Shown one piece after another: positions 2,448 to 17,889 of a stretch of DNA of 64,000 nt. The translations under genes were made by a program, and so were the position numbers. Position 1 is the first letter of the stretch, and every line of letters starts with the position of its first letter. The stretch is from an uncultured Pseudomonadota bacterium (GTDB lineage Bacteria; Pseudomonadota; Alphaproteobacteria; Rhizobiales; Xanthobacteraceae): contig CAVRYV010000012.1 of assembly GCA_963725555.1 (NCBI GenBank), positions 197,962 to 261,961 on the forward strand, in the 5' to 3' direction. The notes beneath the pieces are model-generated. The model worked only from the letters and a program-made list of their open reading frames with translations, made no database searches and was not told the DNA's origin.

Positions 2448-3725
2448 ATGATCGAACCGATCATGTATCTGGCGATCGGTTTTCTGGTCTCGATGCTGTT
2501 CGGGCTGATGATCGTGCCGCTGGTGCATAACCGCGCGGTGCGGTTGACAACGCGACGCATGGAGGCGGCGACGCCGCTGTCGATGGCCGAAATTCAGGCC
2601 GACAAGGATCAGCTGCGCGCGGAATTCGCCATGTCGGCGCGACGGCTGGAGATGAGCGTCGACCAGCTCAAGAGCAAGACCACCAGCCAGCTCGCCGAAC
2701 TCGGCAAGAAATCCGACGCGATCAATCGCATGAAGATTGAACTTGGCGAGAAGAACGCCACGATCTTTTCGCTCGAAGCCCGCGAAAAGGCGGTCAAGGA
2801 GCAGATGCGGGCCACCGAAGAGGAATTCGTCACCAAGACCGACGCGCTGCGATCCGCCGAACTGGCGCTGGCCGACAAGCAAAGCGAGCTTGCCAAGATC
2901 AATGCCGCCTTGGCGGACCGCTCGCTGATGGCCGAGAGCCGCCAGGTCGAATTGGTGGCGGTGCGCGCCCAGATCGATGCGCTGCAGAACCGCGTTGGCG
3001 ACGCCGAAAAGGAATTTGCCGCCACCCAGACCCGGCTTGAGCAGCAGCGCGGCGAATCCGACGTCGCGACGCGCGAACTCACCGCGGCGCGCGGGCGCGT
3101 CGAGAATCTGAGCCAGCGCGTGACCGATCTCGATCGCCAGCTGATCGCCCAGGTCAAGGAAGCCGAAATGCTCGGCAGCCGCGTCAACGATCTGGAAACG
3201 CGTCTGGCCACGCAGGGCAAGCTGCTCGCCGAACGCGACTATGAAAACAACCAGCTGCGCCAGCAATACGAGGCCGCCCAGCGCGCCGCCAAGGAAGCGC
3301 GCGATGAAATCACCGCCACCAGGAGCGGCAAATCGCCGGCGCTGGAAAAGCTGAAGGCCGAGAAAGCGGCGGCTGAGGAGCAGCTCCGCATCGTGCGCGA
3401 CGAACGCGCCAAATTGCAGCGCGACATCAATACGATTCAGCAGCAGACCGAGAGTTCGTGGGCGACCGAGCGCATGGAAAATGCGCTGCTGCGCGAACGC
3501 ATCAACGATATCGCCGCTGAGGTCGCCAAACTTGCGATGCAGCTCGAAGGGCCGAATTCGCCGATCGAGGCGATGCTGGCCGCCGAACCGGTGATTCCGG
3601 CCAAGGCCCCGCGCGCCAACGGCGCCACCGCCAATGCCGGTATCTCCGAAGGCGGCGGCACCCTCGCCGACCGCATCCGCGCCCTGCAATCCCACGCCTC
3701 CCGCGCGCGTTTGCACCAGGGTTGA
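2448..3725 (+). CDS. Membrane-anchored long coiled-coil protein of unknown function
   Basis: N-terminal TM helix followed by about 300 aa of heptad-like A/E/L/Q/R/K sequence; host-like codon usage. Confidence 0.8.
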   Translation: MIEPIMYLAIGFLVSMLFGLMIVPLVHNRAVRLTTRRMEAATPLSMAEIQADKDQLRAEFAMSARRLEMSVDQLKSKTTSQLAELGKKSDAINRMKIELGEKNATIFSLEAREKAVKEQMRATEEEFVTKTDALRSAELALADKQSELAKINAALADRSLMAESRQVELVAVRAQIDALQNRVGDAEKEFAATQTRLEQQRGESDVATRELTAARGRVENLSQRVTDLDRQLIAQVKEAEMLGSRVNDLETRLATQGKLLAERDYENNQLRQQYEAAQRAAKEARDEITATRSGKSPALEKLKAEKAAAEEQLRIVRDERAKLQRDINTIQQQTESSWATERMENALLRERINDIAAEVAKLAMQLEGPNSPIEAMLAAEPVIPAKAPRANGATANAGISEGGGTLADRIRALQSHASRARLHQG

Positions 3726-3736
3726 GCCAGCGTTTC

Positions 3737-3768
3737 GTAGCCCGGATAAGCGAACCGACATCCGGGAT
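3737..3768. repeat. Short palindromic (REP-like) repeat, GTAGCCCGGAT family
   Basis: gtagcccggataagcgaaccgacatccggg; relatives at 23285-23357 and about 45579-45594. Confidence 0.7.
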
Positions 3769-3847
3769 ATGAACGTCGCGTTGCACGGCTGGCGGCATCC
3801 GAACCACACTGCCTTCGAGATTTCAATTTTAAAGCAGCTTACGTTTG

Positions 3848-3978
3848 GTCGTCCCTGCGAAAGCAGGGACCGATACTCTGTGCCGCCGATGTTCTCGGTG
3901 ATGTCGACATCCTTGTTGCACCGCTGCTTACATGCACATGCGCCGGGGCTTATGGGTCCCTGCTTTCGCAGGGACGAC
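3848..3978. repeat. Bipartite palindromic repeat, GTCGTCCCTGCG family
   Basis: gtcgtccctgcgaaagcagggacc ... gggtccctgctttcgcagggacgac; second copy at 13770-13886. Confidence 0.85.
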
Positions 3979-3988
3979 GAAAGCAAGC

Positions 3989-4018
3989 CGTCATTGCGAG
4001 CGTTAGCGAAGCAATCCA
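3989..4018. repeat. Palindromic repeat, GTCATTGCG...GAAGCAATCCAG family (half copy)
   Basis: gtcattgcgagcgttagcgaagcaatccag; fuller relative at 21519-21607. Confidence 0.7.
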
Positions 4019-4029
4019 GCAGTGCTTCT

Positions 4030-4590
4030 GTCATGCACGCCTAAATTCGAGTGTAGCCACAACTTCGCGATCTCGCCGCGCGTTTCGCGCGAGTTTTGCT
4101 CTGACGTTCCGCCCTCCTCGATCAGAAGGCGCCGTGCTACCCCGAGAAGGGGGCAGGGAATGCCGGACGCCCGAAGCGTCCGCGGCCTCGTGTGCAAAGG
4201 TAGAAAGCACACGAGTTAGAAACCACGGTCACACCGGGATCACCCGGCATTCCCCGCGCAATGGTTTTAACGGTTTCCTTCGTGCTCTCTCCGGTGACCG
4301 GGCTTTGTTGTCACCGTCATCGCTGGAGTTGCCTCCAACAACTTGACGCCAGCGTCGGGGCGTCAAGACCACACGACTTCGCCGTCCGCAAAGCCAAGCG
4401 CCTTCGTCAATGCGCTGCTTGCGTCCACCGCATCCCGCACCCACGTCCGTGACGATCGCGAAACGCCCCTTGTGGATGGGACGGGACGGCTGGGGATGTA
4501 GAGGTGATTTGGGTCAGATGGGAACGGGAATATTTCTGGAATTGAGACTGGACGGCCGAAATCACATTGATCCGCTTCAATAAAACAGCG
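4030..4590. repeat. Long (about 550 bp) highly structured intergenic element
   Basis: Stems at 4156-4166/4244-4254, 4187-4195/4207-4215, 4292-4298/4310-4316 and 4342-4350/4359-4367; no credible ORF; resembles dispersed Bradyrhizobium repeats (from recall); boundaries approximate. Confidence 0.6.
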
Positions 4591-4660
4591 TTTTGCGAAA
4601 AACTCCGGTCCGTAGGCCGAGCACTCGTCATCCCATCTGCGTCCGATTGAGCTGGCAACC

Positions 4661-4689
4661 TTGACACCGGTGGCCCGCATTCGTAAATC
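4661..4689 (+). promoter_or_regulatory. Sigma70-type promoter of tRNA-Val
   Basis: TTGACA (4661-4666), N17, TAAATC (4684-4689), about 70 bp upstream of the tRNA. Confidence 0.65.
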
Positions 4690-4760
4690 GCTCGCTCTGA
4701 CGGCGTGTATCGCCCGGCCAAACGCTGATTTGCTGCCTTTGACCGGCGCACGAAAATCCC

Positions 4761-4835
4761 GGACGCATAGCTCAGCGGGAGAGCGTTCCCTTCACACGGG
4801 AGAGGTCCAAGGTTCGATCCCTTGTGCGTCCACCA
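4761..4835 (+). tRNA. tRNA-Val (anticodon CAC)
   Basis: Cloverleaf: acceptor GGACGCA/TGCGTCC, anticodon loop TT-CAC-AC, T loop TTCGATC, encoded CCA. Confidence 0.97.
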
Positions 4836-4993
4836 TTTTTTTAAGGGGATTCCGAGCCCTACCGGCTTTTTCCCACCATAGGGTCCCATAGAGCAAAGCG
4901 CCCATAGTTAGGCTCCGCCGGGGTTCAAGATGTCGCGATCTTTCACGCTAAAATCTCTCGCCCCGCTACATCGTTGCGTGCAATGATTTGCTC

Positions 4994-6197
4994 ATGCCGA
5001 AAGTAAACCACGATATAATGCGATGGGCGCGCGAGACTGCCGGACTTACGGTCGACCAAGCCGTCGACAAGCTCGGCATCAACGACGCTAGAGGTGTTAT
5101 CGCCTCCGATCGCCTGGCCGCGATTGAGCAAGGTGCAGTCGAGCCGAGCCGACCGCTTCTGTTGAAGATGGCTCAGCAGTACCGGCGCCCATTGGTCGCG
5201 TTCTATATGAGCGCCGTGCCTCAAAAAGGGGATCGGGGGCAAGATTTTCGAAATATTCCTGATCGGCAGTCTGGCGCCGAAACGCTCATCGACGCGCTGG
5301 TTCGAGATATTCGTGCGCGGCAAAGTACGGTTCGCGACGTCCTGATGGACGAAGAAGAGACGAGGCCGCTTCCGTTTATCGGCTCAATGACGATGGCGGA
5401 CGGCGTCGAGACTGTTGTGGAACTTGATTCGACGTACGCTAGCGGTCGATCTCGCAGAATTTCGCGCTCAAAAGTCTCCGGAACTAGCATTCGCACTGCT
5501 TCGTTCAAGAGCCGAAGCCGCAGGCGTGTTCGTTCTGTTGATTGGGAATCTTGGAAGTCACCATACAGCGATAGATGTTGAAGCTTTCCGAGGATTCGCG
5601 CTAGCCGATACCATTGCTCCTTTCATCGTGATTAATGATCAGGACCACCGTTCCGCTTGGTCTTTCACGCTGATACACGAACTGGCGCATTTATGGCTCG
5701 GCACAACGGGGGTGAGCGGCGGGTCCGCTGATGTCCAAATTGAGAGATTTTGTAACGACGTTGCCGCGGCTTTCCTCTTGCCTCGTCCCGAAATCGCCTC
5801 CGTCCAGATCGAACGCGGCGCAGATATCCAAGCTATCGCACAAAAGATCGGCGTGTTCGCTCAAGAACGCCATCTCAGCCGATCCATGGTCGCTTATAAC
5901 CTTGCGAGCGCAGGGCTAATTGCCGAAGAAGCATGGTTGGCCCTGGCGGCTCTCTTTCGGGCGCAGTGGCGGCAAGGTCGTGACGCCCAACGAGAAAAGC
6001 AACGAGACGGGAACGGCCCAAACTATTATGTGGTCCGCAGGCACCGCTTAGGTGCAGCGCTTCTTCATTTCGTTTCGCGCAATATGAGCGAAGGCGCGCT
6101 AACCCCCACAAAAGCTGGGAGGGTGCTCGGCGTGAAGCCGCGTAGCGTCGCGCCGCTACTGAGCCCGGTAAAAACGTCCGGTGGTCGAGCTGCGTAG
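4994..6197 (+). pseudogene. XRE HTH + ImmA/IrrE (M78) Zn-metallopeptidase, split by a +1 frameshift near 5423
   Basis: HTH in ORF 4988..5581; HELAH and ERFCNDVAAAFLLP in ORF 5415..6197; frames join as ETVVE-LIRRTL if one base near 5423 is removed. Confidence 0.85.
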
Positions 6198-6200
6198 CCC

Positions 6201-6716
6201 ATGCTGTACTTGTTGGATGCAAACGTCCTTATCACCGCACACCACCTGTACTACCCGCTAGATAGCGTTCCTGAATTCTGGGCGTGGTTGGCGCATAAAG
6301 GCAGGACGTCCGACCTGAAAATGCCAATCGAGAACTATGAAGAGGTCAAAGATGGCAGCACCGACGAAGAACAGGATCTGCTTTTCGCCTGGATCAGTGG
6401 GGAAGAGACCAAATCCGCTATCTTGTTCGATGAAGAAGCAGACGTAGAACTCGTCGCGCGAGTGATCAACGAAGGGTACGCGCCGGACCTTACCGACGAC
6501 GAAATTGTACAAATTGGCCGCGACCCGTTTTTGATCGCATACGCTCTGGCCTCTCCGAACGATCGATGTGTCGTAACAACGGAAGTGTCGGCATCTCGAA
6601 AGATGAGGCAGAACAGACGCATTCCGGATGTCTGTCGTACGATGGGCGTTCAATGTTGCAACACGTTTGAAATGTCGAGAGCGCTTGGATTCAAGACGGG
6701 TTGGTCGCCCGGATAA
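6201..6716 (+). CDS. DUF4411 family (PIN-like) protein
   Basis: YLLDANVLI, FWAWL, DPFLIAYA, VVTTE, RIPDVC; starts 3 bp after the peptidase stop. Confidence 0.85.
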   Translation: MLYLLDANVLITAHHLYYPLDSVPEFWAWLAHKGRTSDLKMPIENYEEVKDGSTDEEQDLLFAWISGEETKSAILFDEEADVELVARVINEGYAPDLTDDEIVQIGRDPFLIAYALASPNDRCVVTTEVSASRKMRQNRRIPDVCRTMGVQCCNTFEMSRALGFKTGWSPG

Positions 6717-6785
6717 CTGTAGCTGCGGGTATCGTTACTGTTCGAACGGCCCCAAAGGCTCAAGCCTTTTTGGTAATTTCTGTAG

Positions 6786-6845
6786 GCTAGGCAACGCATT
6801 AGACCCGCGAGCAAAGATGAAAGGAACCGATATGCCGAGCGCTAA
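6786..6845 (+). pseudogene. C-terminal remnant of a BrnT-type toxin
   Basis: Frame reads RIRPASKDERNRYAER* and overlaps the brnA start as in brnTA operons; in-frame TAG at 6783 and no start codon. Confidence 0.5.
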
Positions 6846-7125
6846 GAAAAGGGCTGGCTACAGCCAAAAGGATCTGCGCGACGTCAGCGACAGTCCCGAG
6901 CTGACGAAAGCGGACTTCGCCAGGGCCAAGCCATTCGTGGAAGTCTTCCCCGATCTCGCCGCCTCGATCCGAAAAGGGCGTGGCCCAAACAAGGCGCCGA
7001 CAAAAAAGCTGGTGTCGCTGCGCCTCAGCCCCGAGGTGATCGAACATTTCAAGGCGACGGGTGACGGCTGGCAATCGCGGATCGATGAGACCTTGCGCAA
7101 GGTGGTAAAGCGGAAGGCATTTTGA
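6832..7125 (+). CDS. brnA: BrnA (DUF4415) antitoxin family protein
   Basis: SPELTKADFARA, RGPNKAPTKKLVSLRLSPEVIEHFKATGDGWQSRIDETLR. Confidence 0.88.
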   Translation: MPSAKKRAGYSQKDLRDVSDSPELTKADFARAKPFVEVFPDLAASIRKGRGPNKAPTKKLVSLRLSPEVIEHFKATGDGWQSRIDETLRKVVKRKAF

Positions 7126-7145
7126 AGTACTGGCCGATTGGGCTC

Positions 7146-7307
7146 ATGAGGATAAACTCGGGTCCACTCGCCGCTTCACTTTCTTCAGCACAAGCTCGCA
7201 GCCCATGGGACCCGCGCGGATGCTATGAGCACCATGCCCATCTAAGTCACCACAATCGTGACGTTCATCACAAAGCGCATCACGTCCACCACTCCCGTCA
7301 AGCGTAG
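7146..7307 (+). CDS. Possible His-rich micro-protein (53 aa)
   Basis: C-terminus YEHHAHLSHHNRDVHHKAHHVHHSRQA; AQA signal-like site; no clear RBS. Confidence 0.3.
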   Translation: MRINSGPLAASLSSAQARSPWDPRGCYEHHAHLSHHNRDVHHKAHHVHHSRQA

Positions 7308-7403
7308 CACTTAGCGGACACGGCAACATGGATCGCGGCCTGACGCGGCGAGTAGTAACGTCCATCCCCGGACGCGCACTCACCTCAGATGAAAGGCAAC
7401 ATC

Positions 7404-7694
7404 ATGGCTAACGTCGAATATAAATCCGCAGTCTACACCATCGGACCGTCTTCGAGCCAGCAGTTCACCTTCTGGTGGGGACCGCGATCCACGGGAGCAG
7501 AATACTTTGACGTGTCAATCGGAGTCGATCCCCAACTCCGTCGCCAGGGGCAAGCCCCTCTGGTCGAAGAGAAGCGCGCCTATCTTTTGGATGAGAGCGA
7601 AGGCGACACACGCAACGTTCTACTTCTGACGCTGCGCAATGATAATCGTTTCGAAGTCTTTTTCACGGCGAACCACATTCGGATTTCCAACTGA
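7404..7694 (+). CDS. Small beta-rich hypothetical protein (96 aa)
   Basis: AAAGG RBS before ATG 7404; non-repetitive globular-looking sequence ending before a hairpin. Confidence 0.7.
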   Translation: MANVEYKSAVYTIGPSSSQQFTFWWGPRSTGAEYFDVSIGVDPQLRRQGQAPLVEEKRAYLLDESEGDTRNVLLLTLRNDNRFEVFFTANHIRISN

Positions 7695-7723
7695 TGAAAT
7701 CGCTATCTTCGCACCAGAATGAA

Positions 7724-7749
7724 AGAGGCCGCCCACCAGGGCGGCCTCT
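7724..7749. terminator. Hairpin terminator between convergent genes
   Basis: agaggccgccc-acca-gggcggcctct, 11-bp stem; short T-run on the minus strand. Confidence 0.7.
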
Positions 7750-7776
7750 CGCAGGAAGAGATCTTTTGTCTGGTCG

Positions 7777-7963
7777 GTTGCGCGACGGCAGTCCGTCGAC
7801 GTTGTCGATCGTGTCGTGATAGGAGCCATTCCCGAACAGCGGGCTGGAGGGATTGCTGCCGGGAGTCCTGTAGGTGGGGTGAAATCCCGGGAGATCCGCG
7901 AGGTTGAGCCTTCCGCCGCTAACCGAGTTCGTTGGTATTCAGTTCGTGAATGTCGTTTTTCAT
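7777..7963 (-). pseudogene. Double-glycine-leader (bacteriocin/RiPP-like) precursor peptide, frameshifted
   Basis: AGGAGA RBS; MKNDIHELNTNEL, then after a frameshift at about 7924 VSGG-RLNLADLPGFHPTYRTPGSNPSSPLFGNGSYHDTIDNVDGLPSRN; 3' end approximate. Confidence 0.6.
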
Positions 7964-8039
7964 GTCCATCTCCTGCGTTGTTTAGGAAGGGGCCATCCCC
8001 TCTCAATTGGTGGTCGCAGGAGTACGCGGCGCGGTGCGC

Positions 8040-8055
8040 TGTGATCTCCGTCACA
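8040..8055. promoter_or_regulatory. CRP-family binding site
   Basis: Exact TGTGA-TCTCCG-TCACA (TGTGA-N6-TCACA), 77 bp upstream of the GG-peptide ATG. Confidence 0.5.
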
Positions 8056-8205
8056 GTTCAAAAACAGGCCGCCCGCGAAACGGACATCGTCAGACCGGCA
8101 CGTAACGATGACCAGCACGCCGCATGCCGACTTACCGTTTGCAGCACGAGGCCGGCTGATATCTGGAGCTCGGCCGACCGCTTCAAGATAACGCGGAATC
8201 CTTGT

Positions 8206-8652
8206 TTACTTCCGAAGGCGTGCGATAGCGCCGGCAACAATCTGCATCAACACGCCCACGGTCCAGCCCAGCAGAATGATTATTGTCCAGAAAATGTGTA
8301 TCTCCTGGCGCAGCACGATGATTCCGACGGATGAAAAAGCCGACAGCGCCGCAAGAAAGGTGCCGACAGCGCTCAGAAATTCCGCGGAATCGACTTTTGA
8401 GATCGTACCTTCTGCATCATCATGCGGGTGAAACGGGGCTTGCGGCGTGTCGATACCAAGATAAAAGCCGATAACGCCGCCCACCATCATCATCAACAGG
8501 AACCCTTGGGACGTCAGCGCCGGGATACTCGATCCGACGTGGACGCCGACAAACAGGCCGCTTGCCGCGCCGGCCATGGCAAGCCCGATGCGCTCAAGAA
8601 CGTGGGCGAACTTTCTGACGCGTGTTCTCATCGTCTGATTCCACACGATCAA
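8206..8652 (-). CDS. Small multi-pass membrane protein of unknown function
   Basis: Four hydrophobic Gly/Ala-rich helices; host-like codon usage. Confidence 0.75.
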   Translation of the reverse strand: MIVWNQTMRTRVRKFAHVLERIGLAMAGAASGLFVGVHVGSSIPALTSQGFLLMMMVGGVIGFYLGIDTPQAPFHPHDDAEGTISKVDSAEFLSAVGTFLAALSAFSSVGIIVLRQEIHIFWTIIILLGWTVGVLMQIVAGAIARLRK

Positions 8653-8807
8653 CCAAGCAGCGCGTTCTCTCTACCGACTGACGCTCCCGTATTTCTTGAG
8701 CAGATCATTAAACGCCTCCCCCGCCAAGGCGTTCAAGGTGGATCGCGCCCCACCGCCAGCATTCCACGCGCGCGGCGATCTTGAGGGCCCACACGATCCC
8801 GTTGAAT

Positions 8808-9485
8808 TCAGCCGCCCGCGCAGTAGGTGCAGCCGCCTTCCTGCGCGCGGTTCACCCCCCATGTTCCGGATGGAATGACGGTGACGCCGGGGACTACATT
8901 TTCGGCCCATTCCTTGGCGGCTTCGTCGGCGCTCACGCCGGCATTGCCGGCAAGCATCTTGCTCTGCACCCGCAGCGCGACGCCGCACGCACCGATCACG
9001 GTGCCGTTCGCGAGCAACCGGTCGAGCGCCATATCGTCGACCAAAAGCACGCCAGGCTTCGGATGCAGGAACGGATTCTTGACCGCCGGCTCCTTGGTTT
9101 CGGGATCGATGATCTTGAGCAACTCCCCGATTTTGTATTTTCGCCACATCTCGTCGCCGAGCGCGATCGGGAACGCACCGTGGCGCAGCACAACGACCGC
9201 CGTCGCGGCAGACGAGCCCGCGCTCGGCGGTTCATGCGTCGCCAGGAACGTGTACGCGAACGCAAGCGGGAAGCCGGCGTTGGCATCGTAGGCGTCCACC
9301 ACCTGGCGATGACGTCCCTTCAGCGCTCCCGGCCAGTCCGGAGTGTCGGATGGCGCTGTCGCAGCCTGCGCGCGCACCGTCGTCATCGCGGACCCCGCGA
9401 GCCCGAGTACCATCGCGCCGGCGAAGCGGCCGAAGAAACCTCGGCGGGGGATCATGTCGGTCATGTCATGGGTAAGATCTGTCAT
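8808..9485 (-). CDS. Tat-exported DsrE-like protein with C-terminal CxxC
   Basis: GGAGGA RBS; RRGFFGRF twin-Arg signal; VVVLRHGA, IGACGVAL, VIPSG, RAQEGGCTYCAGG. Confidence 0.7.
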   Translation of the reverse strand: MTDLTHDMTDMIPRRGFFGRFAGAMVLGLAGSAMTTVRAQAATAPSDTPDWPGALKGRHRQVVDAYDANAGFPLAFAYTFLATHEPPSAGSSAATAVVVLRHGAFPIALGDEMWRKYKIGELLKIIDPETKEPAVKNPFLHPKPGVLLVDDMALDRLLANGTVIGACGVALRVQSKMLAGNAGVSADEAAKEWAENVVPGVTVIPSGTWGVNRAQEGGCTYCAGG

Positions 9486-9715
9486 GGAGTCCTCCATTTT
9501 CTGCATCTGCGCAAACCATCGGATAGCGAGAAGGCGGTCTCAACAGGGACATCGCCGCTGCCAAGCGGCAGCAACCTGAGCGCGGTTCGCTCGATAAGTA
9601 TGTCGGCAAAAGAGACGACGGGTTCACCACGAAAACGGAAGAAAACGCCGCCGGGGCGGGCCGGAAGAACGGCATGCAATTGCCTTTGGAGGAACCCGCT
9701 AAGTCTTAGGACGGC

Positions 9716-9805
9716 GGGGCCAAACAAGGCACCGACAAAAAGCTGGTGTCGCAATCGCGGATCGATGAGACCTTGCGCAAGGTGTTCAAGCGGAAAGCAT
9801 CTTGA
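9716..9805 (+). pseudogene. Degenerate second copy of the brnA 3' half
   Basis: Matches about 6982-7125 with a 54-bp internal deletion (equivalent to 7017-7070) and one A lost from the A-run. Confidence 0.85.
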
Positions 9806-9865
9806 AGGGCGTTAAAAAGCCCGCGGCGTGCAAGCTCCGATCCCTCGTGCGTCCACCATTCAAGA

Positions 9866-10384
9866 TCAGCCCAACCCCGCATCCCTCAGCCGTCGGGACA
9901 GAAAGCCCGATAGCGCCGGGTCGATGGCGCCGCCGAAATACACTTCCGACGCGACGGTTTCTTTCGCCAGCGTCACCAGCACGCCGATCTCATAGGCGAA
10001 CCACAGATGCGGATCGGTCAGGCCGCGCAGCTTGTGCTGGTCGTGTTCCAGCGCCTGATGGTTGGTCGCCTTCCTGACTTCGATCGCGAGCAGGTTTTCC
10101 GGAATGGCCCTGTGGTGCACGACAATATCGGGATAAACCGATCTTCCAGCGCGATCGTCGGTCGAGATAATGGTTGCCCTCGGAAGCCGCAGCGTCCGCT
10201 CTCCGAGACGGGAATAATCGCAGTCGACGTCCCATTCCGGAAAGTATTTTTCGACATGCACCGCCAGCCGATGAGCGAATGTGCGCTCGCCAAGGTCCTT
10301 CTCGAACAACTGGCTCTCGCGCGCATAGAAATCCCTGAGCGCGCTGACGACTTTGTTTAGCTCGGCCTGCATCTCGGATTGCAT
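9866..10384 (-). CDS. Hypothetical protein with PD-(D/E)XK nuclease-like motif
   Basis: ERTFAHRLA ... YPDIVVH ... LLAIEVRK. Confidence 0.65.
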   Translation of the reverse strand: MQSEMQAELNKVVSALRDFYARESQLFEKDLGERTFAHRLAVHVEKYFPEWDVDCDYSRLGERTLRLPRATIISTDDRAGRSVYPDIVVHHRAIPENLLAIEVRKATNHQALEHDQHKLRGLTDPHLWFAYEIGVLVTLAKETVASEVYFGGAIDPALSGFLSRRLRDAGLG

Positions 10385-10504: not shown

Positions 10505-12052
10505 TTACATCTGCACTTCGATCAGACGCGGTCCCTTTTCGGCAACGCCTTCCGCCAATGCCTTGTTGAAATCGTCGGCAGTGGTCACCGCGCGGCCCGG
10601 CACACCCATGCCCTTGGCGAGCGCAACGAAGTCAAGCGTCGGGCGATCGATTTTCAGCATATCGAGCGCGCGCTTGCCCGGCTCGCCGGCGCCGACGCCA
10701 TCGAATTCGCCGCGCAGGATCTGATAGATGCGGTTGGCGAACACGATCGTCAGAACGTTGAGGCCTTCGCGGGCCTGGGTCCACAGCGATTGCAGCGTGT
10801 ACATCGCGCTGCCGTCGCCGACCATGCAGATCACTTTGCGATCCGGGCATGCCACCGCGGCGCCGGTCGCGATCGGAGTCGAAAATCCGATCGAGCCGCC
10901 CATGTTCTGCAGCCAGTCATGCGGGGCCGCGGCCGCGGTCGGCGGAAAGAAGCCCCGTCCGGTGGTGATGGACTCATCGACCATGATGGCATTTTCGGGG
11001 ATCGCGCACGCGATCGCCTGCGCGATCGAGGCGTGGTTCAGCGCGCCGGTCGGCTTGGTGAGCTCAGCCAGCTGCTGCGGCTTGACGTCCTGCGGCCTGG
11101 CGCCGAGCGCTTCCGACAATGCCTCCAGCGCGGCAACGGAATTTTCGCCCCACGCCGTCATCCGGTGCACCTCGCATCCGTCAGGCTTGAGCATGCTCGG
11201 CTTGTTCGGATAGGCAAAGAACGCGACGGGATCGTTGGCCTCGACCAGAATGATGTTCTTGAAGCCCTTCAGCAGCGGCAGTGCCAACTCGATCACATAA
11301 GGAATGCGGTCGATCGAGAACCGGCCGCGGCCGCGCGCCATGCGTGGATGATAGGTCTGGCCCATCACCTTGCAGCCGGTCTTGCCGGCGATCTGCTGCG
11401 CCAGCGCCAGCGCCTTCTCGGTCAGCGCGCTGCCGGTGATCAGCAGCAGATTCCGGGAACCGCCGCCATGCAGCAGCTTCGCCGCGGTCTCGACCGCCTC
11501 CGTGGAATAGCCGGCGCGCTGGCTTGGCGCCGGCACCGCGGCAATGCCGCTGGCTTCGTTCCAGGCGGTATCCGCGGGCAGGATCAGGGTCGCGATCTCT
11601 GGCGGCGAACTCTTGGCCGCGGCGATCGCCGCCGCGCCGTCGGCCGCGACCGATTTCGCGTCGGGCGAGGTCCGCACCCAGGCCGACATCGGCCGCGCCA
11701 GGCCTTCGATATCGGAGGTCAGCGGCGCATTGAGCCCGATGTGATAGGTCGCGTGCTGCCCGACGATGTTGACGATGCCGGAATGGGCCTTCTTGGCGTT
11801 GTGCAGGTTGGCGAGGCCATTGGCGAGGCCCGGCCCAAGGTGCAGCAAGGTCGATGCCGGCGTGCCCTTCATGCGGAAATAACCGTCGGCCGCGCCCGTC
11901 ACCACGCCCTCGAACAGGCCAAGCACACAGCGCATGCCCTCGACCCGATCCAGCGCCGCGACAAAATGCATCTCCGAGGTACCGGGATTGGCGAAGCAGA
12001 CATCAACGCCGCCCGCGACCAGGGTCCGCACCAGACTTTCCGCACCGTTCAT
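10505..12052 (-). CDS. Thiamine pyrophosphate enzyme, acetolactate synthase large subunit-like
   Basis: ANPGTSE, LFEGVVTGAADGY, GDGSAMY...N TPP-binding motif. Confidence 0.88.
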   Translation of the reverse strand: MNGAESLVRTLVAGGVDVCFANPGTSEMHFVAALDRVEGMRCVLGLFEGVVTGAADGYFRMKGTPASTLLHLGPGLANGLANLHNAKKAHSGIVNIVGQHATYHIGLNAPLTSDIEGLARPMSAWVRTSPDAKSVAADGAAAIAAAKSSPPEIATLILPADTAWNEASGIAAVPAPSQRAGYSTEAVETAAKLLHGGGSRNLLLITGSALTEKALALAQQIAGKTGCKVMGQTYHPRMARGRGRFSIDRIPYVIELALPLLKGFKNIILVEANDPVAFFAYPNKPSMLKPDGCEVHRMTAWGENSVAALEALSEALGARPQDVKPQQLAELTKPTGALNHASIAQAIACAIPENAIMVDESITTGRGFFPPTAAAAPHDWLQNMGGSIGFSTPIATGAAVACPDRKVICMVGDGSAMYTLQSLWTQAREGLNVLTIVFANRIYQILRGEFDGVGAGEPGKRALDMLKIDRPTLDFVALAKGMGVPGRAVTTADDFNKALAEGVAEKGPRLIEVQM

Positions 12053-12321
12053 CGTTCCACTCCCGTTCGCGACAGCCATTTAATAGTTCGGGCCGCGATC
12101 GGAGGCAAAACCGGACGCGCGCTCGAAACCTTATGCAGATCAATCACTCCCGGCGCTTTTCGTCAAAGGTTCCGGGGGCATTGCTGCCATCGCCGCGCGA
12201 CGGGGTGGTTTTTTAACCGCAGCGCCTGAAAATCAGCGACCCTCACGCGGCCGTGGGTTGCGAAATTGCATGAATTATGGCCTGTCTTGAGTTCAAGTCG
12301 ATTTTTTTCGCGAGGAAGAAA

Positions 12322-15064: not shown

Positions 15065-15308
15065 GGTTGGGCGGCCTCCGGGCAAATCGTGCGGCTTTTC
15101 GCGCACAGCCTTATGCGTTGGAAATAAGCTTGTCACGGGCCGAAGGGACTGAGAAGAGGGTTCCGCCGAATCGGCCGCCGCCGGCGCCTGCCGTGACGCG
15201 GAATGCCCCAAACTTCCCTTGCCCTGCCGCACGCAACGGGATGTAATTCGTCCAAATCAGTGCCCCCGGAAGCAACCACCGAGGGGGACCATCAGGGAGA
15301 GCCAACCG

Positions 15309-16580
15309 ATGCACGGGACCATCGATCTCGTTCAGAATTCCGATCAGGAAGCGGCGCGGGTGCGAGCTTATTCCCTGCCGATCGAGCAGTTCGATCCCGG
15401 CGATCCCGAGTTGTTTCGCACCGATACGTTCTGGCCCTATTTCGACCGGCTGCGGCAGGAAGCGCCGGTGCACTACTGCAAGGACAGCATCTTCGGACCG
15501 TATTGGTCGATCACCAAATACAACGACATCATGGACATCGAAACCAACCACGCGGTGTTCTCGTCGGCGGCCTCGCTTGGCGGCATCACCATCCGCGACG
15601 TGCCGACCGACCTGCGCCGCGAAAGCTTCATCGCCATGGATCAGCCGCGTCACAGCGCGCAGCGCAAGACCGTGGCGCCGATGTTCACACCGACGCATCT
15701 CGACCAGCTTGCGATCAACATCCGCAAGCGCTCGGCTGAATGCCTCGACAATCTGCCGAAGCACGACGTGTTCGACTGGGTCGATCGGGTGTCGATCGAA
15801 CTGACGACGCAAATGCTCGCGGTGCTGTTCGACTTTCCCTGGGAGGATCGCCGCAAGCTGACGCGCTGGTCCGACATCGCAACGACGCTTCCGGGTTCGG
15901 GCGGCCTGGTCGCGACGGAAGACGAACGGCAGGCCGAACTGATGGAATGCGCAACCTATTTCGCGAAGCTCTGGAAAGAGCGCATCGACCAGCCGCCGAA
16001 GAGCGACCTGTTGTCGATGATGGCGCACGGCGAGGCCACCCGCGACATGGATCCGAAGAATTTCCTTGGCAACCTCATCCTGCTGATCGTCGGCGGCAAC
16101 GATACCACCCGCAACACGCTGTCGGGCAGCATCTATGCGTTGAGCAAAAATCCGGATCAATACAGGAAGCTGCGCGAGAATCCGGCGCTGATCGACAGTT
16201 TTGTGCCGGAGGTGATCCGCTGGCAGACGCCGCTGGCGCATATGCGGCGGACCGCGCTCGAGGACATCGAGTTTCGCGGCAATCAGTTCAAGAAGGGCGA
16301 CAAGGTCGTGATGTGGTACGTTTCGGGCAACCGCGACGAAACGGTGATCGATCGTCCTTATGAGTTTATCATCGACCGGGCGCGACCGCGCACCCACGTC
16401 TCCTTTGGCTTTGGCATTCATCGCTGCGTGGGAATAAGGCTAGCCGAGCTGCAATTGAAGATCATTTGGGAAGAAATCATGAAGCGTTTCGACCACATTG
16501 AGGTGGTCGGGGAGCCGAAGCGGGTGTATTCAAGCTTCGTCAAGGGCTACGAAACCCTGCCGGTGCGGATCGTCGGCTGA
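15309..16580 (+). CDS. Cytochrome P450, CYP153-like
   Basis: FIAMDQPRH, LLIVGGNDTTRN, EVIRWQTPLAHMRR, FGFGIHRCVG. Confidence 0.9.
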   Translation: MHGTIDLVQNSDQEAARVRAYSLPIEQFDPGDPELFRTDTFWPYFDRLRQEAPVHYCKDSIFGPYWSITKYNDIMDIETNHAVFSSAASLGGITIRDVPTDLRRESFIAMDQPRHSAQRKTVAPMFTPTHLDQLAINIRKRSAECLDNLPKHDVFDWVDRVSIELTTQMLAVLFDFPWEDRRKLTRWSDIATTLPGSGGLVATEDERQAELMECATYFAKLWKERIDQPPKSDLLSMMAHGEATRDMDPKNFLGNLILLIVGGNDTTRNTLSGSIYALSKNPDQYRKLRENPALIDSFVPEVIRWQTPLAHMRRTALEDIEFRGNQFKKGDKVVMWYVSGNRDETVIDRPYEFIIDRARPRTHVSFGFGIHRCVGIRLAELQLKIIWEEIMKRFDHIEVVGEPKRVYSSFVKGYETLPVRIVG

Positions 16581-16614
16581 GATACAGCCGACGACCACTA
16601 TTTGGGATCGAACG

Positions 16615-17889
16615 ATGAACATCCGGACCTCCATCAGAGCCGACCACGCCGAGATTCAGCGCGCCGCGCGCGAAGAGGCCTATTCCACGCCGCTGAAGGA
16701 TTTTCATCCCGGAGCACCACGGCTGTTCCAGAACAATACGCTGTGGCCCTGGTTCGAGCGGCTGCGCAAGGAAGAACCGGTGCATTATTGCACCAATGCA
16801 CCGATCGAGCCTTATTGGTCGGTCGTCCGGTACAACGACATCATGCATGTCGACACCAACCATGGCGTGTTTTCCTCGGACGCCACCCTCGGCGGCATCT
16901 CGATCCGCGACGCGCCGCAGGGCTATGACATGCCGAGCTTCATTGCGATGGATCAACCCCGGCACAGCGCCCAGCGCAAGACCGTGTCGCCGATGTTCAC
17001 GCCGACGCATCTGGACCAACTCGCCATCCTGATCCGCGAACGCGCCGGCAAGGTGCTCGATGCGCTTCCGCGCAACGAAACCTTCAACTTCGTCGATCGG
17101 GTGTCGATCGAGTTGACCACGCAAATGCTGGCGACGCTGTTCGACTTTCCGTGGGAGGAACGCCGCAAGCTGACGCGCTGGTCCGATGTCGCGACCGCAT
17201 TGCCCAAGAGCATGATCGTTGAATTGGCCGAACAGCGCCGCGCCGAGATGGACGAGTGCGCGGCCTATTTCGGCAAGCTCTGGAATGAACGCGTCAATGC
17301 CGAACCGCGCAACGACCTGGTCTCGATGATGGCGCATAGCGACGCCACGCGGCACATGGATTTGGAAACCCTGCTGGGCAACATTCTTTTGCTGATCGTC
17401 GGCGGCAACGACACCACCCGCAACACCATGAGTGGTTCGGTGCTGGCATTGAACGAAAATCCCGACCAGTATCAAAAACTGCGCGACAATCCCGCGCTGA
17501 TCGATTCCATGGTGCCGGAAGTCATTCGCTGGCAGACGCCGCTGGCGCATATGCGGCGCACCGCGCTGATGGATACCGAACTCGGCGGCAAGACCATCAA
17601 GAAGGGCGATCGCGTCGTGATGTGGTACGTCTCCGGCAATCGCGACGAAGAAGCCATCGAGAATCCCAACGACTTCATAATCGACCGCGCCCGGCCCCGC
17701 ACGCATCTGTCGTTCGGTTTCGGCATCCACCGCTGCCTCGGCATGCGGCTTGCCGAGCTGCAGCTCAAGATCGTTTGGCAGGAAATGCTCAAACGCTTCG
17801 ACAATATTGAAGTTGTAGGCGAACCCAAGCGTGTGTATTCGAGCTTCATCAAAGGTTACGAAACCCTGCCGGTGCGCATTCCAGCATAA
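16615..17889 (+). CDS. Cytochrome P450, CYP153-like (tandem paralog)
   Basis: Same motifs; heme motif FGFGIHRCLG. Confidence 0.9.
   Translation: MNIRTSIRADHAEIQRAAREEAYSTPLKDFHPGAPRLFQNNTLWPWFERLRKEEPVHYCTNAPIEPYWSVVRYNDIMHVDTNHGVFSSDATLGGISIRDAPQGYDMPSFIAMDQPRHSAQRKTVSPMFTPTHLDQLAILIRERAGKVLDALPRNETFNFVDRVSIELTTQMLATLFDFPWEERRKLTRWSDVATALPKSMIVELAEQRRAEMDECAAYFGKLWNERVNAEPRNDLVSMMAHSDATRHMDLETLLGNILLLIVGGNDTTRNTMSGSVLALNENPDQYQKLRDNPALIDSMVPEVIRWQTPLAHMRRTALMDTELGGKTIKKGDRVVMWYVSGNRDEEAIENPNDFIIDRARPRTHLSFGFGIHRCLGMRLAELQLKIVWQEMLKRFDNIEVVGEPKRVYSSFIKGYETLPVRIPA

Follow-up and report, generated by a model that had tools for sequence, protein, structure and literature searches.

The closest described relative of the gene pair analyzed here is VapBC52 of Mycobacterium tuberculosis (Rv2515c/Rv2514c). 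Toxicity and rescue by the antitoxin were shown for this module in 2019 (PMC6504116), and structures (PDB 9VZY and 9VZZ) and cleavage of tRNA by the toxin were reported in 2026 (PMC13273310). VapB52 and VapC52 form a complex with a 1:2 stoichiometry, and single-stranded DNA (ssDNA) triggers self-cleavage of VapB52 at an "FR" motif in its linker, with F75/R76 as the proposed site; the structural neighbors of VapB52 include IrrE (3DTI), CapP (7T5T), and C-protein controllers (PMC13273310). Phage protection by VapC52 was observed only when the toxin was overexpressed alone and was lost on coexpression of the antitoxin (PMC13273310). Similar architectures had been predicted before these studies, with Xre-COG2856 plus PIN described in 2009 by Makarova et al. 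(PMC2701414) and DUF4411.1 downstream of a fused HTH-DUF955 gene in 2017 by Matelska et al. (PMC5499597). The statement of an earlier note on this DNA that DUF4411 has no characterized function was therefore outdated, the architecture having been predicted in 2009 and 2017 and characterized in 2019 and 2026.

The window, which is the whole 64,000-nucleotide stretch of DNA that was analyzed, carries this gene pair directly downstream of a tRNA-Val(CAC) gene detected by ARAGORN at positions 4761 to 4835 of the plus strand, the gene targeted for integration by the islet in which the module lies. The peptidase-antitoxin gene occupies, with both of its frames, positions 4994 to 6197 of the plus strand (ATG at 4994 and TAG stop at 6195 to 6197) and is followed after a spacer of 3 bp by the DUF4411 PIN gene at positions 6201 to 6716 of the same strand (ATG at 6201; 171 amino acids; Pfam PF14367). 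The positions given in the earlier note, the placement of both genes right after a tRNA, and the 3-bp gap were thus all correct. A degenerate (88%) copy of the 3' end of the tRNA-Val gene (source, 4805 to 4837) was detected by a repeat search at positions 9828 to 9860 of the plus strand, and this copy is likely to be the far attachment site of an islet of ∼5 kb (4838 to 9860). No integrase or excisionase gene was detected between the two repeats (4838 to 9860) by analysis of open reading frames (ORFs) and Pfam matches, and the islet also holds an orphan BrnA gene and a second BrnA remnant. The GC content was 55 to 57% in windows from ∼4500 to 8500, compared to 61 to 67% upstream of 4500 and 59 to 67% downstream of 8500.

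The region upstream of the antitoxin gene (4950 to 4993, plus strand) contains a conserved motif consisting of (T)CTCGC(C) at 4956 to 4962 and GCGTGCAATGA at 4976 to 4986, with the GCGTGCAATGA element ending 8 nt 5' of the ATG. Comparison of upstream regions detected GCTCGC-N17-20-GTGCGAAnGA just 5' of the ATG in ∼15 alphaproteobacterial loci, and the motif may be a promoter or operator. A scan of the region upstream of the operon for the sigma-70 consensus gave no match, and a search of this region for inverted repeats found none. Initiation on a leaderless mRNA was considered and dropped, as a metatranscriptome contig reaches ∼107 nt 5' of the ATG.

The ORF at 6201 to 6716 matched DUF4411 with an E value of 1e-32 over profile positions 1 to 158 of 159. 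Four acidic residues on the plus strand are predicted to be catalytic: D6 (6216 to 6218), E48 (6342 to 6344), D108 (6522 to 6524), and E128 (6582 to 6584). In an alignment of 66 representatives with 32 to 56% identity, D6, D108 (in GRDPFLIA), and E128 (in VTTE) were invariant and E48 was nearly so, such that the acidic residues named in the earlier note were found to be both real and conserved; every invariant residue was retained by the window toxin. The toxin consists of a single domain, and a structural model of it had a PIN fold and matched the HARP RNase P, VapC toxins, and PAE2754. The toxin family comprised 1,749 representatives at 50% clustering. By analogy to VapC52, the toxin is most likely a nuclease acting on the anticodon loop or variable loop of tRNA.

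The antitoxin combines an HTH with an HExxH peptidase of the M78 type, as the earlier note had recognized. The HTH was detected by Pfam as HTH_31 with an E value of 2.4e-4, which is below the curated cutoff, and was evident in an AF2 model, in which the N-terminal domain matched the XRE proteins C.BclI, DdrO, and ImmR with a probability of 1.0. This model had helices at residues 6 to 71 (the XRE HTH spanning ∼6 to 71) and a low-confidence linker at residues 76 to 94 (pLDDT, <50). The peptidase matched Peptidase_M78 (PF06114; E value, 1.3e-11), and the middle domain of the model matched ssDNA-bound PprI (8sln), IrrE (3dte and 3dti), and CapP (7t5t), all with a probability of 1.0. The zinc-binding and catalytic motif H228-E-L-A-H232 (5676 to 5690, plus strand) was identified in the sequence and aligns with H216/H220 of VapB52, and the third zinc ligand, E250 (5742 to 5744, plus strand), aligns with E245. 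H228, E229, H232, E250, and R86 were invariant in the antitoxin alignment and F85 was nearly invariant. The last two residues belong to a D84-F85-R86 motif (5243 to 5251, plus strand) in the linker that joins the N-terminal domain to the middle domain; this motif aligns with the DFR of VapB52 and is a candidate self-cleavage site. An FR motif was present in 72 of 78 clade antitoxins. The only NCBIfam match was a subthreshold one to "spr1629 antitoxin."

Searches of PDB with single sequences placed 9VZY (VapB52/VapC52) as the top match for both proteins, and this complex was the only significant solved relative of either. The antitoxin matched 9VZY_A with an E value of 1.3e-7 as a single sequence and of 9.9e-24 as a profile (profile positions 4 to 362 against chain positions 2 to 357), the latter match having been obtained with a read-through protein and its 100%- and 88%-identical relatives. 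The toxin profile matched 9VZY_D (VapC52) with an E value of 2.6e-14 (positions 2 to 157 against 11 to 157); a diverse profile (A5) was needed for this result, as the E value for VapC52 was stuck at 0.0019 with a profile of close homologues only (A1). Identity was ∼26% to VapB52 over the aligned peptidase and C-terminal part and ∼39% to VapC52 over 56 aligned residues. The structural matches of the antitoxin model largely overlapped the neighbors reported for VapB52. The PDB library used for Foldseek extended to April 2026 and was devoid of 9VZY and 9VZZ; the fold searches hence confirmed the PIN and IrrE/CapP folds but could not rank VapBC52. This near-full-length homology to both VapB52 and VapC52 upheld the central proposal of the earlier note, namely, that a PIN RNase is under the control of an HTH and zinc peptidase protein in a toxin-antitoxin module that is a candidate for abortive infection. 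The locus is very probably a VapBC52-type type II toxin-antitoxin module and candidate abortive-infection module.

On the basis of VapBC52, the XRE HTH domain of the antitoxin would anchor a toxin dimer and would probably autoregulate the operon, while the helical C-terminal domain would plug the active site of the toxin. A stress signal, which in VapB52 is ssDNA from DNA damage or phage replication, would activate the peptidase, and the activated peptidase would then cleave the linker of its own polypeptide at the conserved D-F-R motif. Loss of the N-terminal anchor would free the toxin, leading to cleavage of tRNAs and an arrest of translation. In this scheme, the peptidase would act in cis by self-cleavage of the antitoxin, as in the VapB52 homologue, and not as a separate sensor. 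Homology to VapB52-VapC52, conservation of key residues, synteny of antitoxin and toxin, and mobility were computed here; from homology only, we infer the toxicity, neutralization, tRNase activity, trigger, and phage defense of the window pair.

One difference from VapB52 was detected at the position of its "cysteine switch," C229, which in a HMMER alignment to 9VZY_A corresponds to S241 of the window antitoxin (5715 to 5717, plus strand). A serine was present at HExxH+9 in all 78 clade members, none of which had an aligned switch cysteine, and the loop at this position was an invariant Thr-Gly-x-Ser-Gly. Because the cysteine switch of VapB52 and CapP is absent, an ssDNA trigger is not assured in this clade, and its autoinhibition as well as its activation may differ. 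It is conceivable, but rather doubtful, that the clade from Proteobacteria and Acidobacteriota is a mechanistic variant in which the peptidase is held inactive and triggered otherwise than in VapB52 and CapP; the trigger may be a signal other than ssDNA or may be ssDNA acting without a cysteine switch. If so, peptidase antitoxins that cleave themselves would have two modes of activation.

The fusion of HTH and peptidase described in the earlier note held for intact relatives, which encode a single protein of ∼400 amino acids, but not for the window, in which a single inserted nucleotide, the A at 5421, divides the gene into two frames at codon 143; the only hint of this in that note was the wording "repaired peptidase." The N-terminal part (frame A; 4994 to 5422, plus strand; codons 1 to 143) encodes the XRE HTH, the flexible linker, and the beginning of the middle domain. 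In the given sequence, frame A extends from 4994 to 5581 (stop at 5579 to 5581) and is native to codon 142/143, after which there are 53 out-of-frame codons. The C-terminal part (frame B; 5421 to 6197, plus strand; residues 143 to 400) encodes the M78/IrrE-type peptidase, an internal HTH-like subdomain, and the helical C-terminal domain. The frameshift site (5421 to 5425, plus strand) reads GGAACTTGATTC in the window and GG-ACTCGATTC, with two adjacent GANTC motifs, in intact copies. Alignment to a 99.3%-identical metagenome contig (L001), which encodes an intact antitoxin of 400 amino acids, revealed the inserted A as well as a T in place of C at 5425; the module was otherwise identical to this intact copy up to the end of the contig at 6520. 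In intact form, the site is a double GANTC with the sequence GACTCGATTC, and the forms without and with the extra A are GGACTCGATTC and GGAACTTGATTC, respectively. Programmed frameshifting was rejected: no change of frame occurs in the relatives, and a shift at this site is not conserved.

The origin of this frameshift was examined in further copies. Logan contigs from two public runs (X2 and X11) had no extra base and a C at 5425, while a contig from a third run (X3) ended at 5421 and continued as CTCGATTCGACGT. The contigs of the best-matching public runs were thus either intact at the frameshift site or broken there; all of the near-identical environmental copies were free of the frameshift, and the insertion was unique to the window. 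A search of public runs for the frameshifted version found none, with the best runs holding 0.43 to 0.57 of the sampled words. Simple frameshifts of the antitoxin were detected in 4 of 20 "MFD" loci and in no other loci of the set, and the "MFD" genomes are, we presume, long-read assemblies or metagenome-assembled genomes (MAGs). The candidate pairs of overlapping high-GC3 ORFs that were tested in the window yielded no further frameshift; the LemA/TPM, YcjX/DUF697, RluA-type, and cNMP-binding pairs were rejected as frameshifts, each consisting of separate full-length genes. A generally error-rich assembly was argued against by this absence of other frameshifts among the tested pairs.

If the frameshift is real, then the window copy is unable to work as proposed. 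It would be a decaying copy on an eroding islet, producing a truncated HTH-only protein and no full antitoxin, and the module would be nonfunctional or the toxin silenced by lost translational coupling or polarity. This explanation is quite possible, though short of probable. The break is present in the sequence as given, no further frameshift was seen among the ORF pairs tested, the islet has a degraded appearance (no integrase, an 88% att repeat, an orphan BrnA, and a BrnA remnant), and interrupted or truncated antitoxins occur elsewhere, with an insertion of ∼1 kb in one locus (L020) and only a C-terminal fragment in another (L024). However, the module is identical to an intact copy over the region compared except at 5421 and 5425, with the insertion and substitution clustered within a double GANTC site, and every other near-identical copy is intact. 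The toxin is, moreover, intact at all invariant positions, a state that would be hard to tolerate without an antitoxin, and split antitoxins occur mainly among the "MFD" genomes, the presumed long-read MAGs. Overall, an error of assembly or basecalling is a slightly more likely source of the extra A than a real mutation that arose recently. A real frameshift would provide a natural "anchorless" antitoxin mutant beside an intact toxin.

The distribution of the module was examined in 80 genome loci from Alpha-, Beta-, and Gammaproteobacteria, Acidobacteriota, Iamiaceae, and Binataceae. Antitoxin sequence was present directly upstream of the toxin on the same strand in 80/80 loci; 73 of these had one near-full-length ORF, 5 had a split one, and 2 had only a C-terminal fragment. 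The pair was found on 35 plasmids, 14 of which are conjugative, and in Rhizobium etli pRetNIM1c it lies inside the tra region; the annotation of this plasmid antitoxin as naturally truncated was rejected, as the DNA encodes an uninterrupted ORF. Matches to PHROG families were also detected, and the tRNA neighbors of the pair across genomes were tRNA-Gln, -Lys, -Leu, and -Val. In an uncontrolled comparison, neighbors in other genomes matched MADS, PARIS AriA, Gabija GajB, Lamassu LmuB, Dodola, and restriction-modification methylases. Overall, the window pair is an unexceptional representative of a two-gene module that is widespread and already published.

The occurrence on 35 plasmids, including a tra region, and on tRNA-linked islets would suit a main role in addiction or stabilization of islands and plasmids. 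A role in stress or growth regulation would be in keeping with the effects on copper tolerance and on growth in host cells and animals reported for the M. tuberculosis homologue (PMC13273310), for which phage protection required toxin overexpression. That such roles prevail over phage defense is possible but on the unlikely side, given the defense system matches among the neighbors (uncontrolled, as stated above) and an ssDNA-sensing peptidase in common with CapP, a regulator of CBASS; addiction and defense can also coexist. Regulation of mobile elements was a further consideration, as pairs of an HTH and an M78 peptidase regulate ICEBs1 and prophages (PMC2701414) and the locus adjoins a tRNA with an attachment-site-like repeat. 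An ImmA/ImmR-type regulator of induction or excision, with DUF4411 as unrelated cargo, is nevertheless extremely improbable: unlike in those regulators, the HTH and peptidase are fused, the islet (4838 to 9860) is devoid of an integrase or excisionase, and the partnership with DUF4411, at a spacing of 0 to 4 nt, was maintained across phyla and unrelated contexts.

Pairs of an XRE regulator/ImmA-IrrE peptidase and DUF4411 are common among soil Proteobacteria and Acidobacteriota as well as on plasmids of rhizobia. The name of VapBC52-type toxin-antitoxin modules, with a testable mechanism, can now be given to them, and the value of this is in annotation. The clade-wide replacement of Cys by Ser raises a concrete question for extending the M. 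tuberculosis work. The frameshift is a caution, in that a one-base insertion in a double GANTC, perhaps a basecalling artifact, may make an intact antitoxin look like a pseudogene.

Among known systems, RosmerTA (RmrT/RmrA) similarly has an HTH and M78 peptidase antitoxin-like component and an anti-phage context but differs in its toxin, RmrT, which is replaced here by a PIN domain. A peptidase that cuts a separate partner or is itself the effector, as in RosmerTA or CapP/CapH, with DUF4411 as an accessory, would account for the matches to the PADLOC RmrA (E value, 1.8e-8 at best) and CapP (E value, 3.9e-6) models and for the resemblance of the structural model to CapP (7t5t). These matches were weak and confined to the peptidase core, no PADLOC model matched DUF4411 and there was no RmrT match, and no CBASS, CapH, or DdrO partner gene was found among the neighboring ORFs. 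Furthermore, the best full-length relative, VapB52, cleaves itself, and DUF4411 was the partner in 80/80 loci. This explanation is hence very improbable, and the RosmerTA analogy drawn in the earlier note was a weak one; the PADLOC check that it proposed recovered the RmrA and CapP matches for the peptidase and no known PADLOC system. The IrrE-type zinc peptidase fold with an HTH-like subdomain is shared with CapP/CapH and with IrrE(PprI)/DdrO of Deinococcus, and activation of the protease is tied to DNA damage or ssDNA in CapP and IrrE. Those proteases cut a separate repressor (CapH or DdrO) and switch transcription on, whereas the mechanism proposed here would involve cutting of the protein's own linker and release of a toxin.

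Canonical VapBC modules are similar in that the antitoxin gene comes first and the toxin is a PIN protein, a probable tRNase, whose catalytic acidic residues are the same; the 1:2 complex of the VapBC52 homologue is a point of difference. Their VapB proteins are of ∼10 kDa (8 to 13 kDa) and of the AbrB, RHH, PhD, or MerR type, whereas the antitoxin described here is a multidomain HTH-peptidase of ∼44 kDa and 400 amino acids. The three-component HTH/DUF955 (COG2856)/PIN systems predicted computationally have exactly the same architecture as the window pair; in those predictions the protease cuts a separate Xre repressor (PMC2701414 and PMC5499597), while the solved homologue, VapB52, unites antitoxin, repressor-like HTH, and protease in a single self-cleaving polypeptide. 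The greatest similarity was to VapBC52 itself, which has the same gene order with tight coupling and the antitoxin first, a DUF4411 PIN toxin with D6 and other acidic residues, and an antitoxin (of ∼400 amino acids in intact copies) in which an N-terminal XRE HTH and a DFR linker precede a peptidase of the IrrE type, with HExxH...E, and a C-terminal domain that is helical. The differences are an invariant serine in place of the zinc-capping Cys229 "switch," a clade of Proteobacteria and Acidobacteriota as opposed to Actinobacteria, and the frameshifted copy of the antitoxin in the window. Membership in the VapBC52 type stands because the cysteine switch is a mechanistic detail of the M. tuberculosis system and not part of the architecture, and activation may differ between the two clades.

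Immediately downstream of a tRNA-Val(CAC) gene (4761-4835), a pair of genes was detected in the window. The antitoxin ORF starts with an ATG at 4994, 158 nt past tRNA-Val, and encodes an XRE-type helix-turn-helix in its first ~70 residues. The match of this N-terminus to Pfam HTH_31 fell under the curated cut-off (E 2.4e-4), and C.BclI, DdrO and ImmR superposed on the predicted N-terminal domain with a probability of 1.0. A Peptidase_M78/IrrE domain (E 1.3e-11) was found in a second frame of the gene, with a HELAH motif at 5676-5690 and a TAG stop at 6195-6197. The toxin ORF starts with an ATG at 6201, three bases past this stop, has 171 codons and matched DUF4411 (PF14367; E 1e-32) over 158 of 159 profile positions. 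The earlier note had described an HTH-M78 fusion followed 3 bp later by a PIN-like gene; the genes, their spacing and the acidic residues that it named were confirmed, whereas the fusion is frameshifted in the window as written, with the HTH in frame A (4994..5581) and the peptidase in frame B (the remainder). A GCTCGC-N17-20-GTGCGAAnGA motif (4950-4993) ends 8-12 nt ahead of the antitoxin ATG, is conserved upstream in about 15 alphaproteobacterial reference loci (e.g. L002, L003, L004, L006, L013, L036 and L038) and is a possible promoter or operator; no obvious Shine-Dalgarno sequence precedes this ATG. Two contigs of a permafrost metatranscriptome matched the antitoxin gene with full identity in its 5' part, which is weak evidence of its transcription.

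The 400-aa read-through of the antitoxin was 100% identical, after rounding, to an intact JGI metagenome protein, P0001. The contig encoding this protein, L001, aligned with the window over 3.16 kb at 99.3% identity, and inside the module, up to the end of L001 coverage at 6520, the sole differences were an extra A at 5421 and a T for C at 5425 (window GGAACTTGATTC; intact copy GG-ACTCGATTC). As written, the frameshifted gene has a predicted product of 142 native and 53 aberrant residues. A second JGI contig carried an intact 400-aa antitoxin followed by the exact toxin, Logan contigs from two further runs were without the extra base and had C at 5425, and a third run's Logan contig broke exactly at the frameshift site and then went on with the intact sequence. 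The frameshifted version was found in none of the public sequencing runs searched. The intact site consists of two adjacent GANTC motifs, the CcrM methylation motif of Alphaproteobacteria. Among the 80 reference genomes, simple antitoxin frameshifts were confined to the loci labelled 'MFD', which we take to be long-read MAGs, where 4 of 20 had one; two of these four breaks resembled, ambiguously, the insertion of 1 nt into what would otherwise be a GANTC. A single-base insertion inside GANTC that breaks the antitoxin was directly shown in the window (5415-5430), and a GANTC was probably broken by insertion at about 5300 in L002 (GAGTTC) and about 5700 in L004 (GATTTC). Within the reference set, such insertions are concentrated in the MFD genomes, and they may stem from basecalling that goes systematically wrong where the DNA is methylated, with false pseudogenes as the result. 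The exact toxin protein is on record on one 0.2-1 Mb contig, which is by inference compatible with a long-read MAG source. On balance, we lean towards the extra A at 5421 being an artefact. The opposing explanation, a genuinely broken antitoxin copy carrying a real recent mutation, has a serious if smaller chance of being correct, and is favoured by the finding of no second frameshift among the window candidates tested, which counts against an artefact.

In a set of 80 genome loci, with one genome per species, antitoxin sequence was present immediately upstream of the toxin on the same strand in every case. The antitoxin was a single near-full-length ORF at 73 loci, was split at five (L002, L003, L004, L015 and L020) and was represented by a C-terminal fragment only at two (L024, and L081 at a contig end). 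In the gene table of R. etli pRetNIM1c (L084), a 215-aa 'ImmA/IrrE' CDS and an opposite-strand hypothetical protein are the only entries for 2744-3988. In the DNA, the antitoxin ORF is intact over its full length (profile positions 1-390), and hence the short CDS is an annotation problem and not a truncation. The 80 loci cover Alpha-, Beta- and Gammaproteobacteria, Acidobacteriota (Bryobacterales), an Iamiaceae actinobacterium and Binataceae, and a 50%-clustered library held 1,749 toxin representatives at E <= 1e-3. The toxin was also detected on 35 plasmids (14 conjugative), in settings that included the tra region of pRetNIM1c and a position beside an integrase on Caballeronia p2, and both genes matched PHROG families. 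The pair lay directly after tRNA-Gln or tRNA-Lys in L015, L022 and L075, and in L054, a Bryobacteraceae MAG, between two tRNA-Leu(TAG) genes (3916-4002 and 6600-6688) 2.6 kb apart. The two genes alone seem to make up a minimal mobile islet that targets tRNAs. Neighbouring genes in 38 genomes included matches to MADS, PARIS AriA, Gabija GajB, Lamassu LmuB, Dodola and restriction-modification methylases, as well as integrases and transposases, an uncontrolled observation that suggests defence-island or mobile contexts.

In the window, the 3' end of tRNA-Val (4805-4837) is repeated 5 kb downstream (9828-9860; 88% identity), and GC content is 55-57% in windows from ~4500 to 8500 versus 61-67% before 4500 and 59-67% beyond 8500. 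No integrase was found between the repeats. These features make the module, described earlier as the first cargo after a tRNA, the leading gene pair of an islet of ~5 kb that has no integrase and looks like an old, eroded, tRNA-integrated element. A BrnA-type antitoxin gene (6829-7125; PF14384, E 1e-23) stands alone, with no gene for a BrnT toxin in the 112 nt ahead of it. Just before the repeat, at about 9600-9815, lies what remains of a second BrnA, in degenerate form: 57 nt at 93% identity, together with a 'GPNKAPTK' fragment in a different frame. This arrangement suggests either that the islet has two ends related to each other or that an insertion occurred in tandem. Three islet ORFs had no Pfam, PADLOC or PHROG match: 7389-7694 (+; 101 aa), 8206-8652 (-; 148 aa, membrane-protein-like by sequence) and 8808-9506 (-; 232 aa, with a twin-arginine-like signal, RRGFFGRFAG...). 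Just outside the repeat, a 172-aa protein (9866-10384, -) matched PADLOC PD-Lambda-3_A (E 1e-22); no PD-Lambda-3_B partner was found, and the next gene (10505-12079) encodes a thiamine-pyrophosphate enzyme. Further downstream, a tandem pair of paralogues, each about 1.3 kb long (15153-17889, +), shares 75-80% DNA identity and corresponds to repeat families D1-D4, spaced about 1310 nt apart. Upstream of tRNA-Val, a segment of ~100 nt (4587-4690) shows 14 substitutions and 4 single-base gaps between the window and L001, 18 differing positions in all, against only 2 in the preceding ~1.2 kb. This segment is either locally hypervariable or recombined.

Among the acidic residues of the toxin, D6, D108 and E128 never vary within the family and E48 almost never does; the window copy keeps all four. 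The toxin model (pLDDT 81.5) has a PIN fold, with protein-only RNase P (HARP), VapC toxins and PAE2754 as its nearest folds. Across the antitoxin family there is no variation at H228, E229, H232, E250 and R86, and next to none at F85; in the AlphaFold model (pLDDT 77), a DFR tripeptide falls within a low-confidence linker (76-94) that joins the HTH domain to the peptidase. The closest solved folds of the peptidase domain were PprI with ssDNA (8sln), IrrE (3dte/3dti) and CapP (7t5t). We regard a Rosmer- or CapP-like sensor with a separate partner as its target as very improbable, and the Rosmer link proposed earlier is weak; an ImmA/ImmR-type element regulator is more improbable still.

The best solved relative of antitoxin and toxin alike was PDB 9VZY, with chains labelled 'HTH cro/C1-type domain-containing protein' and 'DUF4411 family protein'. 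As single sequences, the peptidase part matched 9VZY_A (E 1.3e-7; 33-219 against 167-354) and the toxin 9VZY_D (E 0.0019; 95-154 against 95-150). Profiles of 26 antitoxin sequences and of 66 diverse toxin representatives matched the same chains with E 9.9e-24 (4-362 against 2-357) and E 2.6e-14 (2-157 against 11-157), respectively, and no other PDB family was significant in these antitoxin and toxin searches. 9VZY is the M. tuberculosis VapB52-VapC52 (Rv2515c-Rv2514c) complex (PMC13273310), and the pair is a member of this known, recently characterised kind. A three-component TA system was predicted in 2009 for PIN-linked Xre-COG2856 fusions, naming Rv2515c (PMC2701414); HTH-DUF955 fusions with DUF4411.1 downstream were described in 2017 (PMC5499597); Rv2514c was found in 2019 to be toxic in M. 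smegmatis, with rescue by Rv2515c (PMC6504116); and in 2026 VapC52 was identified as a PIN tRNase that cuts anticodon or variable loops (PMC13273310). The earlier note was right about the kind of system, a peptidase with a PIN toxin; its claim of novelty, that of a DUF4411 effector with no characterised function, is outdated.

One VapB52 binds a toxin dimer (1:2), its N-terminal domain on the outer surface and its C-terminal domain plugging the active site, and ssDNA switches on the IrrE-type peptidase, which then cleaves the antitoxin's own linker close to a conserved FR motif (PMC13273310). The architecture and key residues of such a module were demonstrated here by computation, for the antitoxin on its read-through protein and relatives. 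Stress release of the VapBC52 type is the best-supported reading, with steps taken from the homologue: under stress, the self-cleaving peptidase antitoxin would free the PIN tRNase. VapC52 overexpression shields M. smegmatis from phage D29 (PMC13273310); a main role in addiction or stress control and not in phage defence, which is compatible with the other readings, is possible but rather unlikely. Only two points are worth following up, namely, whether the frameshift is an artefact and the clade-wide loss of the cysteine switch.

The antitoxin DFR aligns with the DFR of VapB52, and the reported structural neighbours of VapB52 largely overlap those of the window peptidase domain. In contrast, the zinc-capping 'cysteine switch' of VapB52, C229, aligns with Ser241 of the window antitoxin, and the equivalent position is Ser in 78 of 78 parsed antitoxins of the clade. 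Auto-inhibition and activation in this clade may therefore differ from the M. tuberculosis and CapP model.
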